Source: a virus (taxonomy: Duplodnaviria > Caudoviricetes). From it: a stretch of 64,000 nt of DNA. Under the pieces are notes generated by a model, which ran no database searches, was not told the origin of the DNA, and saw nothing but the letters and a program-made list of their open reading frames with translations. Made by a program: the position numbers and the translations under genes. The stretch covers positions 134,000 to 197,999 of IMG/VR virus record IMGVR_UViG_2731957577_000001; one strand, written 5' to 3'. This document shows positions 2,084-26,996 of this stretch, in pieces (position 1 is the first letter of the stretch; every line of letters begins with the position of its first letter).

Positions 2084-2932
2084 TCAATGCAACACCCGAG
2101 TGGATTCCTGGATCACATCCTCGGGGAGATACACGGGGCGGGAAAGTGCCGTTCGGGCATTGAAGTTCGTATAGTGAGAGACGACTTCCCCACTAGAGAG
2201 AATCGTATTGAGATACGAGGCAGCGATGAGCGCAGCCATTTCATTGGTCTGCATGCGCTGTGGCGCGTCCACCACCGTTTGGCCACAGGACTGCGTCGGA
2301 AGCCGGGAATCCTTATCCTCAAGGATATCCGGATACACCTCACCGACAGGCCCTAGAACGGTCTTCCCATGGATTTTGACACCACAGACGACATGTCCAC
2401 CATACCCGCTTTCTGCAATCTCTTCCTCGCTGCCTTCGGTCAACACAGCCTCGACACCGGTATCGATGTAGACCACCGTACCTTTGGATCCTTCAAACCA
2501 AGCATGCATCACTTGGCGAGAGGCATGATTGTCCACACAGCCAATGAGAATCCGAATGAGACGCCGGTATGCTGGAAAGACACCAAAACACGATTCAACG
2601 TCCTCAGGCGTCTCCACATACGACTCCTTATAGAACACCGGGATGTCGTAGACGGTACCATAACGCTCCGCGAGGACCTTAGACTTGGGGAGTCCAAGGT
2701 CCTCCGCGATGCAAGGCTGACGGAGAAGGTTCTTGGATTCGAACCGGTCTCCGTCGACGATGCAATAGCGAAAGCTGTCCAATGTACCTGCGGCATGGAA
2801 AGCATACAACATCTTGGCCAGTCTCTGGGTCAGGTATCCGCCATTTCCACCCGCACCTACCTGCACGATGTCAAAATGAAAATGGTGGGGCGTCCGATGA
2901 CGTGGCCAGACCCGAAGCACGGGATGAAACAT
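2084..2932 (-). CDS. ThiF/E1-like adenylyltransferase (PRTRC-type)
   Basis: VGAGGNGG, DGD, NLLRQ, GCVDN..SR, YID.G motifs, SC candidate catalytic Cys; GGAGG SD before MFHPV. Confidence 0.9.
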   Translation of the reverse strand: MFHPVLRVWPRHRTPHHFHFDIVQVGAGGNGGYLTQRLAKMLYAFHAAGTLDSFRYCIVDGDRFESKNLLRQPCIAEDLGLPKSKVLAERYGTVYDIPVFYKESYVETPEDVESCFGVFPAYRRLIRILIGCVDNHASRQVMHAWFEGSKGTVVYIDTGVEAVLTEGSEEEIAESGYGGHVVCGVKIHGKTVLGPVGEVYPDILEDKDSRLPTQSCGQTVVDAPQRMQTNEMAALIAASYLNTILSSGEVVSHYTNFNARTALSRPVYLPEDVIQESTRVLH

Positions 2933-3035
2933 ATCCTCCCTCCCGTTATGTGGAAAGTATCGCGGCAAAGCGCGGCAGAAGCAGTTGATCCTGTCGACTC
3001 AATGCCGTGTCTAGATACCGACACACTTCATAGAT

Positions 3036-3440
3036 TCAACCTTTCTTGGCTCCCTTAACGACCGGAACGATCTGTTTCTTCTCGGCATCAACCAGCATCT
3101 CGGTGCGCTCTTTTGACAGCTCAGGATAATCCGCCTCGAGCATCTGCCGGACTTCTTCCACCGTCATCTCATCCCGCGGCACGGGGATCTGATAGCCGGC
3201 ATAGTACACCATATAGTCTGTGCCAACCTTCTCAGGCGTCTTGGTGACGGTCTTCTTGACTGTGGTATTCTTCGACGACCGTTTCTGCGGCTTCGATGTT
3301 TCTGGCTCCTCAATCTCACCAAAGAGGTTGGTTACCGGTTCGTCGTCCTCTGGTTGCGGAGCGGCCGCTTCTGGTTGGTATCGATTCAATTCCTCGTTCG
3401 TGGTCACCTGATCCTCACGTTCCAGTTCCAAATCTGCCAT
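3036..3440 (-). CDS. Prokaryotic ubiquitin-like protein (PRTRC protein C-like) with acidic N-terminal extension
   Basis: Y.G..IP....MT.EEVR..L...YPEL and terminal ...GAKKG; adjacent to E1 and E2. Confidence 0.8.
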   Translation of the reverse strand: MADLELEREDQVTTNEELNRYQPEAAAPQPEDDEPVTNLFGEIEEPETSKPQKRSSKNTTVKKTVTKTPEKVGTDYMVYYAGYQIPVPRDEMTVEEVRQMLEADYPELSKERTEMLVDAEKKQIVPVVKGAKKG

Positions 3441-3455
3441 GGGTCCTCTCTCCTC

Positions 3456-3620
3456 TCAGTCCAAGGAATCATAGAATTTTCGAATCATCGAGCCGATGAT
3501 TTTCCATCCGATGTACACCACGAGAGCAAAAATCACGATGGGTGCAAGGAACATCAACACATGAAAGGCAATGTAGAGCACCAGCAAAATCAGGGCAATG
3601 AGACACAGAAATCGAAGCAC
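3456..3620 (-). CDS. Small hydrophobic membrane protein (54 aa, below ORF-track cutoff)
   Basis: GAGGTG SD, GTG start, MLRFLCLIALILLVLYIAFHVLMFLAPIVIFALVVYIGWKIIGSMIRKFYDSLD. Confidence 0.7.
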   Translation of the reverse strand: MLRFLCLIALILLVLYIAFHVLMFLAPIVIFALVVYIGWKIIGSMIRKFYDSLD

Positions 3621-3642
3621 AGGATTCACCTCATATTCTTGA

Positions 3643-4323
3643 TCACCGCCGAATGGTTTTCTCGGCCCATTCGGAGAAGGTGAGGTTCAGCGGTGTCAAA
3701 ATGTCATTGTCAAACTCACCTCCCTGAAAGGTATCAAAAACTTGGCGCAGGGGCCAACCGGTCTGATTCGACCGTCCTTGAATGTAGAGGTGGTCATTAT
3801 TCGGGGTTTGTACCCACCGATATGGAAACGTCTGTAGCTGAGTCAGAGACTTGACTTTCTCGTTGTCAAAGTAACAAAGCATCCCTCCGTGGTGGACGTT
3901 TGAATAGGGAAACTGATAGACTGGTGAATCGTCTTTCAGGAACTGGTCGGTATAACAGCACACAGCCGCATGGACCAGGCGCTCCCCTTTCACCCGGAAA
4001 GCAAAAACCATTTTGGGATAGGGCACTTGGTGAAAGGTATCCGTGTGGTACACGACGTCAAACTGTCCGCCTTCCCAGGTCAAAAAGACCCACTCCGACT
4101 CATCCCCCATCTTGGCGTATTTGACCGTCCCGGGCGGCAGGGTCGGTGACGCAGCAACGAGCTCATATTGCTGGGCGGATGATTCCGAAGGCTCAATGGA
4201 CGAGAGTTCAATATAGTGCAACAAGCGATCGGTGGTGATATGAAACGAGCGCTTGACCCCGTCGTCATCAAACTCAATCAGGGGCAAGTGCTCATCATCC
4301 AACGTGATTACAACGGCAGCCAT
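3643..4323 (-). CDS. Prokaryotic E2 family D-like protein (PRTRC protein B-like)
   Basis: VP.P.MVF and Y.FPYSNV..GG.LC motif with candidate catalytic Cys. Confidence 0.8.
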   Translation of the reverse strand: MAAVVITLDDEHLPLIEFDDDGVKRSFHITTDRLLHYIELSSIEPSESSAQQYELVAASPTLPPGTVKYAKMGDESEWVFLTWEGGQFDVVYHTDTFHQVPYPKMVFAFRVKGERLVHAAVCCYTDQFLKDDSPVYQFPYSNVHHGGMLCYFDNEKVKSLTQLQTFPYRWVQTPNNDHLYIQGRSNQTGWPLRQVFDTFQGGEFDNDILTPLNLTFSEWAEKTIRR

Positions 4324-4958
4324 AACTGTTCGTACACCTCTTCCGGAACCGGAGATACACGGCTTTTACGTTTCTGAAAGAACTCATCCCATTCCCTCCA
4401 CGACGAGATGAATTCCTCAAGGGCTGAACTCATGATATTCCAGCCTTCCGCACTCACACAAAGAATTGGGGATTCTTCATCCAGCCAACCAGCATACAGC
4501 CAATAGCCGTCATACGTTTCTCCAAAACAGGCCGCAATGCTGCGTCGAAGGTCCTGGTACCGCTCGACTTCCCAATCGAACAGCCAGAAGTTCTCCATGT
4601 CATGAAAGACGAGACGAAAGAGCAAATTCTCTCCGGGAATGCTGTCATAATCCGTGGCTTGTGGATCCTCCACGGAAACTCGGTCACCCGTAATCACCTT
4701 CAACATATCCAGAAACATGTTGGTGGTATCGCAATAGGGGTCATACCCTTCATCAAAGACGAGCAACTTTTCCTCGAGCGGATACCCGTTCATTTGCATG
4801 AGCTTCATCATGCGAAGCCGGTCAAGACACGCCAGATAATGGACGACGGTTTCATAGTCCGGGAGCATCGAACCACTCTCCCCTAAAAGAATGTGACAGA
4901 CCGCTTGGCGGCTGGCAACATGGAAAAGCCATAGATCAAATCCTTCATACGAATCCAC
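4308..4958 (-). CDS. Acidic hypothetical protein of the ubiquitin-like operon
   Basis: Long ORF overlapping neighbours in operon; start uncertain. Confidence 0.6.
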   Translation of the reverse strand: MDSYEGFDLWLFHVASRQAVCHILLGESGSMLPDYETVVHYLACLDRLRMMKLMQMNGYPLEEKLLVFDEGYDPYCDTTNMFLDMLKVITGDRVSVEDPQATDYDSIPGENLLFRLVFHDMENFWLFDWEVERYQDLRRSIAACFGETYDGYWLYAGWLDEESPILCVSAEGWNIMSSALEEFISSWREWDEFFQKRKSRVSPVPEEVYEQLWLPL

Positions 4959-5218
4959 TCATAGACGGGATGACCTTGGGCATCCTCCAGATTGTCGGCC
5001 TCAGCTGTCGGACAATACGCCATCGAATCCATGGCAAAGTCAATGCTCTGCAGGTCGATCTGTTTCAACTCCTCAAGGGTGACACGATCCCGATTGTGAA
5101 TCAGGTCAAAAAGCGGGAACTGAACCTCGGTCTGGCGAACCTCCGACTCTGGCAATGACGCCGTTGTAAGGAGAAGCTGCTTGAACTTATCGGTGTAGAT
5201 CCTTGGCACGGCGCTCAT
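4883..5218 (-). CDS. Hypothetical protein, first gene of the ubiquitin-like operon
   Basis: GGAGGAGG SD; two operator copies upstream at 5281-5312. Confidence 0.7.
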   Translation of the reverse strand: MSAVPRIYTDKFKQLLLTTASLPESEVRQTEVQFPLFDLIHNRDRVTLEELKQIDLQSIDFAMDSMAYCPTAEADNLEDAQGHPVYEWIRMKDLIYGFSMLPAAKRSVTFF

Positions 5219-5374
5219 ACTCCTCCTCCCCCCCCTTGTTCTTCAACGGCTGAATACACCATCTACCCTATGTTTCCCCATGTAATGCACTTCAAGTATG
5301 AAAAGGATTACAAGGAAGATCAACTACGGGAAAGAAAAAGCCCAGATCACGAAGTGACCCGGGCCAAAGGCGGC

Positions 5375-7237
5375 TCAGCCAGCCGCTTGCCGTCGCTCTC
5401 GGTTTTTGAGCATCCACTCGACTGCAAGTTTCGTGACATCCACCTTTCTCGCAGCCTTGCCACTCTCAAGAATCTGATCGGCCAGCTCCGCCTTGCGCTG
5501 GATAATCTCTAGGATCTGCTCATCAAACGAATTGCTCATCACGTAGTAATAGATCGTAATGTTCTTGGCACGGTTTCCGGTACGGTCAATTCGACCAATT
5601 CGTTGTTCAAGGAGCGTGTGATCCCAAGGCAAATCGATCATGACCATATAGTTCGCGACCTGCAGATTCAAGCCAGTAGAGGCCGCATCGGTGGCCACGA
5701 ACGCCTTGACGCTTGGATCCTCGACAAAGCGACGAACCGCTTCCTCCTTCTCAGAGGTCGGTAGCTGACCGTGATACAAGACACTGTTGGGAAGCTCGCG
5801 ATGAATGATTTCGGCCATGCGAGCAAACCGCGTAAAGATCACGACCTTGGATTCAGGTTCATCATAGGTCATGCTCTTATAGAATTCCTTGAGCTGCTCA
5901 ATCTTTGGAGACTTAAAGTCCTTATCTGTAATGGCCAGTTCTTTGACGATCTGGTCGGCCATCGTGGAGCCCGACATGTGAAATAGCTCAAGGGTATCAC
6001 ACGCACCCACAAGGAAGTTGTAATACCCCTGGACGCGCGCGTCGATGGCATCCAGCGCTTCCTCGGTCGAGACCAGCTGACCATGCAGGAACTGAAACGA
6101 CTTTCCGGACGAGCGGAGTTTGCTGGACTCCTCCCTCGCCTCTGCGATTTTCTCCAGGATCGCATCATGAACTTGTGCCTGTTTCGGCGTCATGTCAAGG
6201 AACAGGTGGCTATGCTGCACCTCCGGAAGCTGTTGCTGAATCTCCGGCATGTCCTTCGTCCGCCGGATGAAATGCGGCGCAATCCGGTAATGCAACTCAC
6301 CCATGTTCTGATACCCATTGATCCCGTACCGTGGATGATACTTGCAGTAACGCTCACGGAAGCGCTCCCACGGCCCCAGAATGTTCTCATCCAGAAAGTA
6401 GAACAGACTCCAAATCTCCTCGGCCTTGCCCACAACCGGGGTTGCCGTAGCGAGAAAGCGATATGGGATATGACGAAGCTGATGCACCGCCGCCGCATTT
6501 TGGGACGGCTTGAGCCGCAACATCTTGTCGGTCACACCGGTCTTGATCTTTTGGGCCTCATCGAGAGCCACAATGTCAAGCGGTAGTTTCTTGATCCGCT
6601 CCAGATAGTCCTTGGTCCGAAAGGTTTCATAGTTGACGATCAAGAAACGGACATCGCTGTTCTCGAATTTCTCAATGGCGCCAATGCGCTGCGCCGGCGT
6701 GCCGGCCACGACGATGGCGTCCTCTCCGGTAAACTTGTCAATCTCTCGCGCCCACTGACGCTTGAGGGAATTCAGGGTCACAATCAATGCCCGACGGGCC
6801 TTCCCACGCTCAAAAAGGCGCATACAGGCACCAATGAGCTGCGGGGTTTTACCTAGGCCACAGCCGTCAAATGTGGCAGCACAACCTCGGTCGACCAGGA
6901 AGTTGGCACCGACTTTTTGATATGGATACAGTGGGACCTTGAACGACGGAAAATCCGTGTCCTGCTCCCACTGGAGATGTCTCTGAACCAATTCATCTTC
7001 AATCGGGAGGCCCTCCGCCTCAACAATTTCGCGAAGCGGCGTCATCCAAATGATCTGATTTGGGAACAGCACAAGTAGACGTGAGACCTGTTCGCGGCCA
7101 CACATCCATTCCCCCGTTTTCAAGTTGAAACTCCGGCCTGGAATGGTGCGGATCTTCTCGAGGGTAAAATCAAACGTCTCTTGGGAATCAAGAATCTTCA
7201 TGTAGAGGTTCCCAAATTGCATTCGTACCTGGATCAT
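5375..7237 (-). CDS. SNF2-like SF2 helicase/ATPase
   Basis: LYPYQ, GLGKT, DEAQ, TATP, GLNLQ, QRIGRIDR motifs. Confidence 0.93.
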   Translation of the reverse strand: MIQVRMQFGNLYMKILDSQETFDFTLEKIRTIPGRSFNLKTGEWMCGREQVSRLLVLFPNQIIWMTPLREIVEAEGLPIEDELVQRHLQWEQDTDFPSFKVPLYPYQKVGANFLVDRGCAATFDGCGLGKTPQLIGACMRLFERGKARRALIVTLNSLKRQWAREIDKFTGEDAIVVAGTPAQRIGAIEKFENSDVRFLIVNYETFRTKDYLERIKKLPLDIVALDEAQKIKTGVTDKMLRLKPSQNAAAVHQLRHIPYRFLATATPVVGKAEEIWSLFYFLDENILGPWERFRERYCKYHPRYGINGYQNMGELHYRIAPHFIRRTKDMPEIQQQLPEVQHSHLFLDMTPKQAQVHDAILEKIAEAREESSKLRSSGKSFQFLHGQLVSTEEALDAIDARVQGYYNFLVGACDTLELFHMSGSTMADQIVKELAITDKDFKSPKIEQLKEFYKSMTYDEPESKVVIFTRFARMAEIIHRELPNSVLYHGQLPTSEKEEAVRRFVEDPSVKAFVATDAASTGLNLQVANYMVMIDLPWDHTLLEQRIGRIDRTGNRAKNITIYYYVMSNSFDEQILEIIQRKAELADQILESGKAARKVDVTKLAVEWMLKNRERRQAAG

Positions 7238-18917: not shown

Positions 18918-18954
18918 ACACATTTCTCCTTCACAAATCCCGAAGGGCATTACA

Positions 18955-19929: not shown

Positions 19930-20115
19930 AAACAACACTCCTTTCCGAGCTTCATGAACAAGTCACAGCACATTCATCACAAATCGCTCTCCTAAATCAG
20001 CCGATAGGCTTGAAGGGCATTACACAACCAGAAACACAGTATACCCTAACTTACCACCACTTTGAACATCCCGTAGGGGACATGAAACACCATACACATG
20101 ACACATGGATGACCA

Positions 20116-26942: not shown

Positions 26943-26996
26943 ATCTATCGTGTTATACTGGTCATGAAGTGCATTACACATAGGGCGGGGATAATC

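Follow-up and report, generated by a model that had tools for sequence, protein, structure and literature searches.

The window analysed here is a stretch of 64,000 nucleotides from a ~198-kb phage-like contig (C7) found within an Alicyclobacillus assembly. It carries a cassette whose genes encode an E1-like enzyme, an E2-like enzyme, a ubiquitin-like modifier (Ubl), and two accessory proteins, p111 and p186, which together with their surroundings present the following features.

2084..2932, minus strand: E1-like adenylating enzyme of the ThiF family, PRTRC_ThiF-like; ORF open to 2968
3036..3440, minus strand: Ubl of 134 aa, with a disordered N-terminal tail, a beta-grasp domain, and a free C-terminal G-A-K-K-G
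3456..3629, minus strand: small, hydrophobic two-helix membrane ORF between E2 and Ubl, with its own GAGG ribosome-binding site
3643..4323, minus strand: E2-like conjugating enzyme of the Prok-E2_D family, with candidate catalytic Cys150
4308..4868, minus strand: p186, fast-evolving accessory protein; likely ATG at 4868 (186 aa), ORF p216 open to 4958
4883..5218, minus strand: p111, small conserved accessory protein of 111 aa from the first cassette gene; ends V-T-F-F-COOH
5281..5292, minus strand: copy of the phage-wide 12-mer AAGTGCATTACA, ~60 nt upstream of the p111 start
5339..5365, minus strand: terminator-like hairpin with a 12-pair stem and then a T-run, TTTTTCTTT, 3' of the SNF2 gene
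5375..7237, minus strand: SNF2-family helicase (Pfam SNF2-rel_dom and Helicase_C), given as context, with no claim to membership in the system

Genomic setting and upstream region

The phage origin proposed in an initial annotation of this DNA is borne out by the terminase, portal, and protease encoded within the window and by a GC content of ~52% vs ~60% in the host; C7 is a low-GC jumbo phage or plasmid-prophage of Alicyclobacillus. That annotation had also described a co-directional operon of two unknown genes, an E2-D-like gene with its Cys motif, an unannotated 54-aa hydrophobic protein, a Ubl, and a ThiF/E1 gene, and all of these gene-level claims hold, with every cassette ORF on the minus strand. 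The surrounding replication genes comprise SNF2 and an adjoining RNase H-like gene. SNF2 is a recurrent upstream neighbour, lying upstream of the cassette in the related loci L006, L008, L009, L014, L023, and L024, and in L040 a gene annotated as a DEAD/DEAH-box helicase is found upstream.

In C7, the terminator-like hairpin sets the SNF2 gene apart from the cassette's own upstream region. Two operator copies had been reported upstream but were not reproduced; a single copy of the 12-mer was seen instead, with a 6-bp inverted half-site nearby, and positions 5150-5450 contain no direct or inverted repeats of 10 bp or more. The 12-mer has 17 matches with up to two mismatches in the window (3.4 expected), a number reached by none of 100 shuffles, and its copy at 5281-5292 is a possible promoter or operator element.

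Proteins of the cassette

The likely start of the E1-like enzyme is the ATG at 2932, which aligns with the starts of its orthologues, and the protein matches Pfam ThiF above the cut-off at 29.1 bits. Across 12 diverse E1s, G-x-G-G-x-G-G and V-D-N-x-x-x-R are kept throughout, as are the Asn and Gln of the N-L-x-R-Q motif (the Arg is replaced in one), and Cys228, within L-P-x-x-x-C-G, is the only invariant cysteine. No rhodanese domain was detected in the E1 with Pfam or NCBIfam. The E2-like protein is matched over residues 95-164 by Pfam Prok-E2_D (PF14460) at 25.2 bits, against a gathering cut-off of 25. Its Cys150 lies in G-x-L-C-Y, preceded by P139 and N142 and followed by D177-H178, and is invariant in the seven phage orthologues and in 69 diverse relatives; Prok-E2_D itself matches 61 of the 69 profile-found relatives (best E 2e-14). 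The AF2 model of this protein (pLDDT 79) has E2/UBC enzymes as its best structural matches over residues ~52-212, at the modest Z of 4.0-5.3 over 117-133 residues, and matches bacterial BubB (Z 4.2) and a CBASS E2 (Z 4.0) over 93-96 residues; Foldseek by itself gave no match.

The ~70-aa acidic/basic extension and free Gly (KKG) first ascribed to the Ubl are both present: residues 1-70 form an acidic, Lys-rich tail that is predicted to be disordered, and the reading frame stops directly after GAKKG. The initial annotation had expected the Ubl to model as a beta-grasp, as it does, with residues 72-128 folding in AF2 (pLDDT ~85) as strand-strand-helix-strand-strand. In comparison with all PDB representatives, Z was 4.5-5.8 over 50-62 residues among the matches listed, and the best 50 were, with few exceptions, Ub, SUMO, ISG15, MoaD, or other ubiquitin-like domains; structural Z-scores of 4-6 are modest, and Foldseek returned nothing significant. 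Pfam Prok_Ub (PF14454) scores 21.7 bits (E 1.8e-4), below the gathering cut-off of 25, and PRTRC_C is likewise weak and below its cut-off. Prok_Ub matches only 14 of 46 Ubl homologues at E<=0.01, none scoring better than the Ubl of the window. The terminal KKG is invariant in seven Ubl orthologues, and a K[KN]G C-terminus is found in 36/36 long-class homologues.

The two genes at the head of the operon had been recorded simply as unknown, and their status as conserved core members of the cassette, new here, was overlooked. An orthologue of p111, recognizable by position and sequence, lies directly upstream of p186/E2D in all seven related phages; the p111 profile detects L024_p116, L021_p109, and L023_p121 at E ~1e-5 to 1e-4, and the C-terminal aromatic F-[FIY] is kept family-wide. 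No match to p111 was obtained in Pfam, NCBIfam, PHROG, PADLOC, or PDB, and a language-model match to winged-helix domains (score 0.93) is a lead only. The gene for p186, whose stop overlaps the E2 start, is always located between p111 and E2 among the relatives examined; the p186 alignment has a mean column identity of only 29%, L023 encodes four paralogues, and searches gave no family, fold, or PDB match. Neither protein matches NCBIfam at E<=0.1, a result that bears on PRTRC proteins D, E, and F. Both may be obligate partners of the cassette, although any role assigned to them is conjectural; being fast-evolving and paralogue-prone, p186 could serve as an adaptor, as a subunit that sets specificity, or as a substrate.

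The hydrophobic ORF is 57 aa long from its first GTG and 54 aa from the second (3620), which stands behind the GAGG. With tblastn, no homologue was found in any related cassette examined (the six closest relatives and more distant cassettes). The E2-Ubl interval of relatives is a gap of only 20-30 bp, and L009 alone has a hydrophobic ORF, unrelated and placed after its E1. Because it is absent from related cassettes, the ORF looks inserted rather than a component of the system, and is newly described here as what looks like a lineage-specific, unrelated insert.

Relatives and the absence of JAB and ParB

The same five cassette genes are found, differently ordered, in six other phage contigs of 93-216 kb, which keep the E2 Cys, the Ubl terminal Gly, and the E1 nucleotide-binding motifs invariant. 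All five ORFs are intact in the seven phages at 38-55% identity; the order of the genes has changed, but none has been lost. The wider family numbers 886 representatives at E<=1e-3, and the layout p~110 / p~180 / E2 / Ubl / (JAB) / E1 also occurs on metagenomic contigs, one bacterial assembly contig, and plasmids. Homologues are reported here for the first time on sequenced plasmids of Bacillota, 154 in number and for the most part large replicons from Bacillus. Among them is pBtic235, a jumbo prophage of B. thuringiensis israelensis whose inducibility is proven.

JAB genes resembling PRTRC_A, and genes resembling PRTRC_parB, occur in intermediate relatives. The initial annotation had seen no JAB peptidase at the locus, and this extends to the whole 198 kb of C7: the Prok-JAB, JAB, and PRTRC_A models match nothing there, tblastn with the JAB of a relative gave no homologue, and a credible JAMM motif is lacking. 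JAB is also missing from three of four complete relatives. The search of the rest of the genome that had been suggested did locate JAB-domain proteins on host contig C19, and in pBtic235 a JAB-like gene lies ~26 kb away from the cassette, both of which bear on the irreversibility of conjugation that had been envisaged. C7 has no ParB, the sole ParB_N matches in the genome being on host contig C15. The pairing of a missing JAB with an already exposed Gly proves general in the sample, the Ubl ending in Gly at 12/12 JAB-less loci, a new observation. At most JAB-bearing loci, Ubls end in GGC or in RKG plus 2-4 residues, or are Ubl-JAB fusions cut after GGKKG, and one such locus has a free-Gly Ubl and a separate JAB. 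With a Ubl that is already mature when made, the processing role of JAB would be dispensable.

The likeness to PRTRC-type E1/E2/Ubl clusters recognized from the start is reflected in the best NCBIfam matches, all of which fall short of the curated cut-offs: PRTRC_ThiF (76.1 vs 144.75 bits), PRTRC_B (14.7 vs 131.45), and PRTRC_C (18.4 vs 45.95). PRTRC (ParB-Related, ThiF-Related Cassette; NCBIfam TIGR03734-03742) is taken here to be the same as operon type 6d in the survey by Iyer, Burroughs & Aravind 2006, whose components are a small beta-grasp protein in which the C-terminal Gly is conserved, an E2-like protein in which a Cys and a His downstream of it are conserved, an E1 without rhodanese, and a JAB that is always fused or adjacent to the E1 (PMC1779556). 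The terminal Gly of the Ubl, Cys150 and His178 of the E2, and a rhodanese-free E1 are all present in the window, and no JAB is fused or adjacent to the E1.

Proposed function and known systems

The preferred reading, to which a probability of about 0.7 is attached, is that the locus is functional and represents a branch of the PRTRC-type Ubl conjugation cassette that lacks both JAB and ParB and is situated in the replication region of the element. The kind is already known (PRTRC, operon type 6d) and was predicted in 2006; this branch is diverged and stripped-down. Counted against the reading is that the Pfam and NCBIfam scores of the window's proteins are mostly at or below curated cut-offs. 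Of the original proposal that the phage conjugates its Ubl, possibly at the membrane, the first part is consistent with the conserved catalytic signatures and the membrane site is unsupported. Family knowledge and the conserved residues suggest three steps, in which the ThiF-type E1 would adenylate the exposed Gly134 of the Ubl, with Cys228 perhaps holding it, the Ubl would move as a thioester onto Cys150 of the Prok-E2_D protein, and from there it would be joined to lysines in one or several targets. The JAB gene would have been lost in this clade.

A possible site of action is suggested by the Ubl tail, which carries the motif NLFGE at residues 38-42, within the predicted disordered region. 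The beta-clamp-binding consensus is QL[S/D]LF or QxxLF (PMC12309361), and a QxxLF-type sequence motif, missed by the initial annotation and new here, is present family-wide in the N-terminal tail. QxxLF itself occurs in 25 of 36 long Ubls, in tails that are otherwise divergent and disordered (shuffle mean 0.44, maximum 3), and QMDLF, QSDLF, QMSFF, and QMSFL variants occur in distant JAB-bearing cassettes. An own DnaN is encoded by C7 and by eight of nine other elements (9/10 of those checked). It is tentatively proposed, at somewhat less than even odds, that the motif and Lys-rich stretch dock on the beta sliding clamp, be it the DnaN of the phage or that of the host, and that the clamp is itself tagged or serves as a tether for tagged proteins at replication forks. 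Rather unlikely as it stands is the fuller version, in which the Ubl would be a transferable clamp-binding tag whose Gly is ligated by E1/E2D to the clamp or to proteins that thereby gain a clamp handle, allowing large phages and plasmids to control replication-fork traffic. The window's own copy, V-T-N-L-F, is degenerate, keeping positions 4-5 and having lost the Gln; several repeats of the form DLF/GLF/NLF, also without Gln, occur in the Ubl of the pBtic235 type, and pBtic235 encodes no DnaN. The partner may therefore not be the clamp, and the tail motif may bind something else; large replicons may, moreover, carry dnaN for reasons unrelated to the cassette.

Host takeover or anti-defence tagging differs in the identity of the targets and is compatible with the enzymology proposed above, since the same cascade would act on host defence or proteostasis factors recruited by the N-terminal motif. 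A phage carries the cassette and probably expresses it together with early or replication genes, p186 evolves fast and duplicates as expected of an arms-race specificity factor, and bacterial Ubl systems are known in phage-host conflict. The same cassette is, however, carried by conjugative-type plasmids and by elements that are not obviously phages, which speaks for a role in the biology of the element itself, and E2D, Ubl, p111, and p186 match none of the PADLOC defence families; this explanation is considered improbable. It is considerably less probable again that the locus is a decaying, non-functional PRTRC remnant, as the loss from the whole contig of two family hallmarks, JAB and ParB, and the foreign small ORF between E2 and Ubl might imply, given the intact ORFs, invariant catalytic Cys, terminal Gly, and ATP-binding motifs, and reshuffling without gene loss noted above; a Ubl C-terminus that is precisely mature in 12/12 JAB-less loci looks like adaptation, not decay.

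The small ThiF/MoeB type of the E1, the presence of MoaD among the Ubl structural matches, and the PAPS-reductase/DndC-like genes near some distant relatives would suit a sulfur carrier, in which E1 and Ubl act like ThiF/ThiS or MoeB/MoaD and a Ubl thiocarboxylate thiolates a nucleic acid or cofactor without conjugation. This is very unlikely for a cassette that always includes an E2-fold protein with an invariant Cys, whose E1 has no rhodanese, whose window contains no adjacent sulfurtransferase or PAPS-reductase, whose Ubl ends in K-K-G rather than G-G and has a long docking tail, and whose JAB-bearing relatives have the Ubl-JAB fusions typical of modifier processing. Least credible is membrane-directed conjugation, the initial idea, under which the 54-aa membrane protein would either be an anchor for the E2/Ubl machinery or be targeted by it. 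Its ORF does lie within the operon and has a ribosome-binding site of its own, but it occurs at this position only in this phage.

PRTRC-type cassettes are annotated in many genomes, and the literature searched contained neither biochemical evidence on any of them nor a demonstrated function. The peptidase-free minimal form with its ready-made tag should make reconstitution simpler, and knock-outs are feasible in pBtic235, which carries a relative of the cassette. The conserved short motif of the Ubl suggests the DNA sliding clamp as a partner that can be tested, and this would fit the constant placement of the cassette in the replication regions of both phages and plasmids.

With PRTRC, the cassette shares a small E1, an E2 with Cys and His, a small Gly-ended Ubl, extra small proteins, and residence on mobile elements; it differs in scores far below the cut-offs, in having no JAB and a contig without ParB, in a Ubl made mature with a ~70-aa disordered tail and QxxLF-type motif, and in its carrier, a Bacillota jumbo phage or plasmid-prophage. 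Bil (BilABCD) and CBASS Cap2/Cap3 have in common with it the catalytic-cysteine chemistry of E1 and E2 (and Ubl) on mobile or defence loci, but serve the host in defence, include a JAB deubiquitinase, and draw on other E2 and Ubl families, whereas the present cassette is phage-encoded. PADLOC-DB v2 has no model that matches E2D, Ubl, p111, or p186, and its Cap2-type E1-E2 models match the E1 Rossmann region weakly and partially (E of at least 1e-4). Bub operons also combine E1, E2, and Ubl, their Ubls have variable N-terminal regions, and BubB resembles the E2 model; Bub uses oxyester intermediates, no catalytic cysteines, and a Ser-His protease (Ye et al. 2024, bioRxiv 10.1101/2024.11.21.623953), whereas the E2 Cys is invariant here and the family is Prok-E2_D rather than DUF6527.

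The comparison with eukaryotic PCNA ubiquitination/SUMOylation applies only if the clamp idea is right, and is then a functional analogy, a ubiquitin-fold modifier acting at the clamp beside an SNF2-family ATPase, with no homology claimed beyond the E1, E2, and Ub folds. The eukaryotic Rad5/HLTF proteins are SNF2-family ATPases. In the present cassette, unlike the eukaryotic system, the modifier itself would carry the clamp motif. Were the clamp tag real, it would be a prokaryotic counterpart of PCNA ubiquitin/SUMO signalling, and ubiquitin-like control of the replication clamp would not be a eukaryotic invention.

The carrier element and its cassette

The window occupies positions 134000-197999 of a contig that is 197,999 bp long and has a GC content of 52%, as against approximately 60% for the other contigs of the 3.6-Mb assembly. 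Terminase, portal, and head-protease genes are present in the window, and the DnaN of the host shares 95% identity with its Alicyclobacillus kakegawensis counterpart. The GC contrast, the phage genes, and the host DnaN thus point to a phage or plasmid-prophage of jumbo size that was assembled together with an Alicyclobacillus genome, and the contig looks like a complete element of this kind from an Alicyclobacillus. Its relatives are contigs or plasmids of 190-216 kb from Oceanobacillus, Virgibacillus, Bacillus, and Paenibacillus. Outside the window, near 34 kb on the plus strand of the contig, lies a single open reading frame (ORF) of ~2,826 aa.

An SNF2 helicase gene is followed by a terminator-like hairpin and then by the six tightly packed ORFs of the cassette.

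Features of the cassette region (window positions)
5375-7237, minus strand: SNF2 helicase
4883-5218, minus strand: p111, small protein, first gene of the cassette
4308-4868, minus strand: p186, small protein (ORF open to 4958)
3643-4323, minus strand: E2-like protein
3456-3629, minus strand: hydrophobic ORF of 54/57 aa
3036-3440, minus strand: ubiquitin-like modifier (Ubl), 134 aa
2084-2932, minus strand: ThiF-type E1 (ORF open to 2968)
5281-5292 (minus), 26967-26978 (plus), 18943-18954 (plus), and 20013-20024 (plus): example sites of the 12-mer AAGTGCATTACA

None of the six cassette ORFs has a PHROGs family, and a megablast of the cassette region against phage records returned no match. With up to two mismatches, the 12-mer occurs at 17 sites in the window versus 3.4 expected; it is a candidate promoter or operator of the phage, for which an operator role is not claimed. 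The initial annotation had placed two operators upstream of the cassette, where a repeat search found no repeat pair; apart from these, the gene module that it described is real.

Relatives of the cassette and its two small proteins

Six further phage contigs, ranging from 93 to 216 kb, carry the five cassette genes other than the hydrophobic ORF; CheckV rates four of these contigs as 97-100% complete. One belongs to an Oceanobacillus profundus assembly, and the protein sources of the relatives also name Virgibacillus and Bacillus. In these phages the block p111-p186-E2-Ubl is constant, and E1 lies either before or after it. Every relative examined has the two small proteins in the same position: this holds in metagenomic contigs (L020, L023-L025), in a contig from a bacterial genome (L021), in JAB-bearing PRTRC-like loci (L034-L037, of which one also has ParB), and in plasmids of Bacillus, Thermobacillus, Paenibacillus, Peribacillus, and Thermoanaerobacterium. 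p111 and p186 therefore belong to the conserved cassette block.

Neither protein has a family, a fold match, or a match in a PDB profile search. For p111, a structure atlas offers a winged-helix-like domain (0.90-0.93) as a lead only, and the C-terminus of p111-type proteins is invariably an aromatic pair (F-F, F-I, or F-Y). p186 has no language-model or structure-atlas match (score 0.77; Atlas model pLDDT 0.35) and is fast-evolving, with a mean column identity of 29%. Four p186-like paralogues surround the E2 gene of a metagenomic relative (L023:2856-6195), suggesting that proteins of this type may act as diversifying specificity factors or substrates. That either protein might be a degenerate JAB was rejected, as both lack the H-x-H...S-x-x-D motif and a profile match.

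Homologues of the E2-like protein are carried by 154 PLSDB plasmids, 120 of them from Bacillus and all but one typed as non-mobilizable. Among the records listed these plasmids range from ~110 to 333 kb, mostly ~200-240 kb, and among the matches listed nearly all of the homologues are annotated as 'hypothetical protein'. One of the 154 plasmids, pBTHD789-2, is the jumbo plasmid-prophage pBtic235, whose inducibility is proven (PMC8026635).

Several neighboring genes were also recorded. The cassette E1 of Bacillus phage vB_BceM_WH1 is directly followed by a gene for a NADAR domain (ADP-ribose processing; L004:5851-6324). Several distant cassettes have DndC/PAPS-reductase-like genes no more than a few kb away (L021:11480-15000, additionally with a DNA methylase; L034:2276-3751; L043:11886-12654).

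The putative conjugation components and the absence of a JAB gene

The E1 passes Pfam ThiF, and its best NCBIfam match is PRTRC_ThiF, at 76 bits versus a cut-off of 145. Across 12 diverse orthologues the Gly-rich loop, the Asn and Gln of N-L-x-R-Q (the Arg being substituted in one), and V-D-N-x-x-x-R are invariant, and Cys228 is the sole invariant Cys.

The E2-like protein is barely over the Pfam Prok-E2_D cut-off (25.2 versus 25 bits). A profile built from seven orthologues and searched against 1.84 billion proteins recovered 886 representatives at E<=1e-3; among 69 sampled relatives the Cys is kept in all, 61 match Prok-E2_D, and 40 weakly match PRTRC_B. In its AF2 model (pLDDT 79), residues ~52-212 align best with eukaryotic E2 enzymes (VIA-align against PDB, Z 4.0-5.3), and bacterial BubB and a CBASS E2 are further structural matches of the model. 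Scanning species genomes with a single-sequence pattern for E2 gave no match. Residues 1-50 of the protein encoded at 3643-4323 form an additional N-terminal strand-strand-strand-helix domain, which shows weak structural similarity to COMM and PUR-repeat domains (Z 4.1-4.8); approximately one third of family members carry a different N-terminal extension of ~200 aa in its place.

In the Ubl model, 70 disordered N-terminal residues accompany a strand-strand-helix-strand-strand domain at pLDDT ~85. An exhaustive VIA-align comparison with 48,161 PDB representatives gave, among the best 50 matches listed, nearly all ubiquitin, SUMO, ISG15, Fubi, MoaD, or other ubiquitin-like domains (Z 4.5-5.8), and sequence matches to Prok_Ub and PRTRC_C fall under their cut-offs. 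Foldseek against PDB found no significant match for the Ubl or E2 model, and the two folds were revealed only by the exhaustive search; as both models reach Z-scores of 6 at most, the folds were assigned on the strength of consistent match lists. A modifier without a beta-grasp fold was to count against the proposed module; the model instead returned ubiquitin-like matches, at modest Z-scores. Interpretation of the cassette as a ubiquitin-like conjugation module appears to be right in kind.

The hydrophobic ORF fills the gap between the E2 and Ubl genes, which is 20-30 bp in relatives, and is read as a probable insertion, not a cassette component. It has no counterpart in any related cassette examined, and the earlier suggestion that conjugation possibly takes place at the membrane is not supported.

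The reported lack of a JAB gene was borne out on the contig: the Prok-JAB, JAB, and PRTRC_A models matched nowhere, the JAB of a relative had no homologue, and no convincing JAMM motif turned up. Three of the four complete relatives also lack one, and the fourth has a match of only 15.8 bits, far from the cassette. Every one of the 12 JAB-less loci sampled encodes a Ubl whose last residue is Gly, in the form K-K-G or K-N-G; that of the window has K-K-G. In one arrangement of JAB-bearing relatives the Ubl ends in G-G-C, or in R-K-G plus 2-4 residues; in another, on Thermobacillus pTHECO01 and Paenibacillus pAZOPL1, it is fused to the JAB at a junction ...G-G-K-K-G|S/A. A free-Gly Ubl with a separate JAB was found once, in Peribacillus.

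Fused and possibly fused JAB proteins
L040:6709-8082 and L043:6710-8143: Ubl-JAB fusion proteins of 457-477 aa, JAB right after ...GGKKG
L004:3513-4895, between the E2-like gene and E1: Bacillus phage WH1 gp215, 460 aa with a JAMM motif, which may be a third fusion

This comparison of termini supports Ubl maturation as the probable main job of the JAB in this family, in which case loss of the gene is explicable. In pBtic235 (NC_018509.1, L038) the cassette has no adjacent JAB, and a JAB-like (PRTRC_A-like) ORF of 403 aa lies at ~122.8 kb, ~26 kb away. Given this distant gene and the JAB proteins encoded by the host, absence of a JAB from the cassette does not imply irreversible conjugation.

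The Ubl tail and comparison with known systems

The 52 Ubl homologues comprise 36 long and 16 short forms, the former having a disordered tail that is acidic and then Lys-rich. An L-F motif is present in the tail of 34 of the long forms, and 25 of the 36 contain QxxLF (QLDLF, QLALF, QLNLF, QMALF, QFSLF, and others), compared with an average of 0.44 and at most 3 in residue shuffles, although such counts overstate independence because the sequences are related. Distant JAB-bearing cassettes carry QMDLF, QSDLF, QMSFF, or QMSFL at the N-terminus. The consensus beta-clamp-binding motif of bacteria is QL[S/D]LF, more generally QxxLF, and in Bacillus subtilis PolC carries QLSLF and DnaE QMGLF (PMC12309361). 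The contig encodes a clamp of its own, which scores 205 bits, over the cut-off:

98769-99881 of the contig (outside the window), minus strand: DnaN-type beta sliding clamp, 452-aa ORF with an acidic C-terminal tail

DnaN is likewise encoded by all four complete relatives and by four of the five cassette plasmids checked; large replicons may carry dnaN for reasons independent of the cassette. The motif of the window's Ubl is V-T-N-L-F, without Gln, the pBtic235-type Ubl has DLF/GLF/NLF/NPF repeats, also without Gln, and dnaN is absent from pBtic235. A link between the Ubl tail and the beta sliding clamp is put at a probability of roughly 0.4; a broader reading, in which the motif is a functional docking site for some partner, is considered far more probable.

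No experimental work on PRTRC was located in a literature search, E1, JAB, or Ubl genes go unmentioned in a comparative jumbo-phage survey, and two papers on pBtic235 refer neither to the ThiF gene nor to ubiquitin. Membership of the Bil, CBASS, and Bub systems was rejected on family grounds, and for Bub also on chemistry. The cassette most resembles operon type 6d (Iyer, Burroughs, and Aravind, 2006; PMC1779556), here equated with NCBIfam PRTRC, in its standalone E1 without rhodanese, its E2-like protein with a conserved Cys and downstream His, its small Ubl with a conserved terminal Gly, and its extra uncharacterized proteins. It differs in that its three shared components score far under the curated cut-offs, that it has no JAB, which was always fused or adjacent in the 2006 survey (PMC1779556), and that no ParB was found on the contig. 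These differences place it in a sister branch of PRTRC and not within PRTRC as defined by NCBIfam, and its value lies in a minimal architecture, a putative family-wide docking motif, and tractable relatives.
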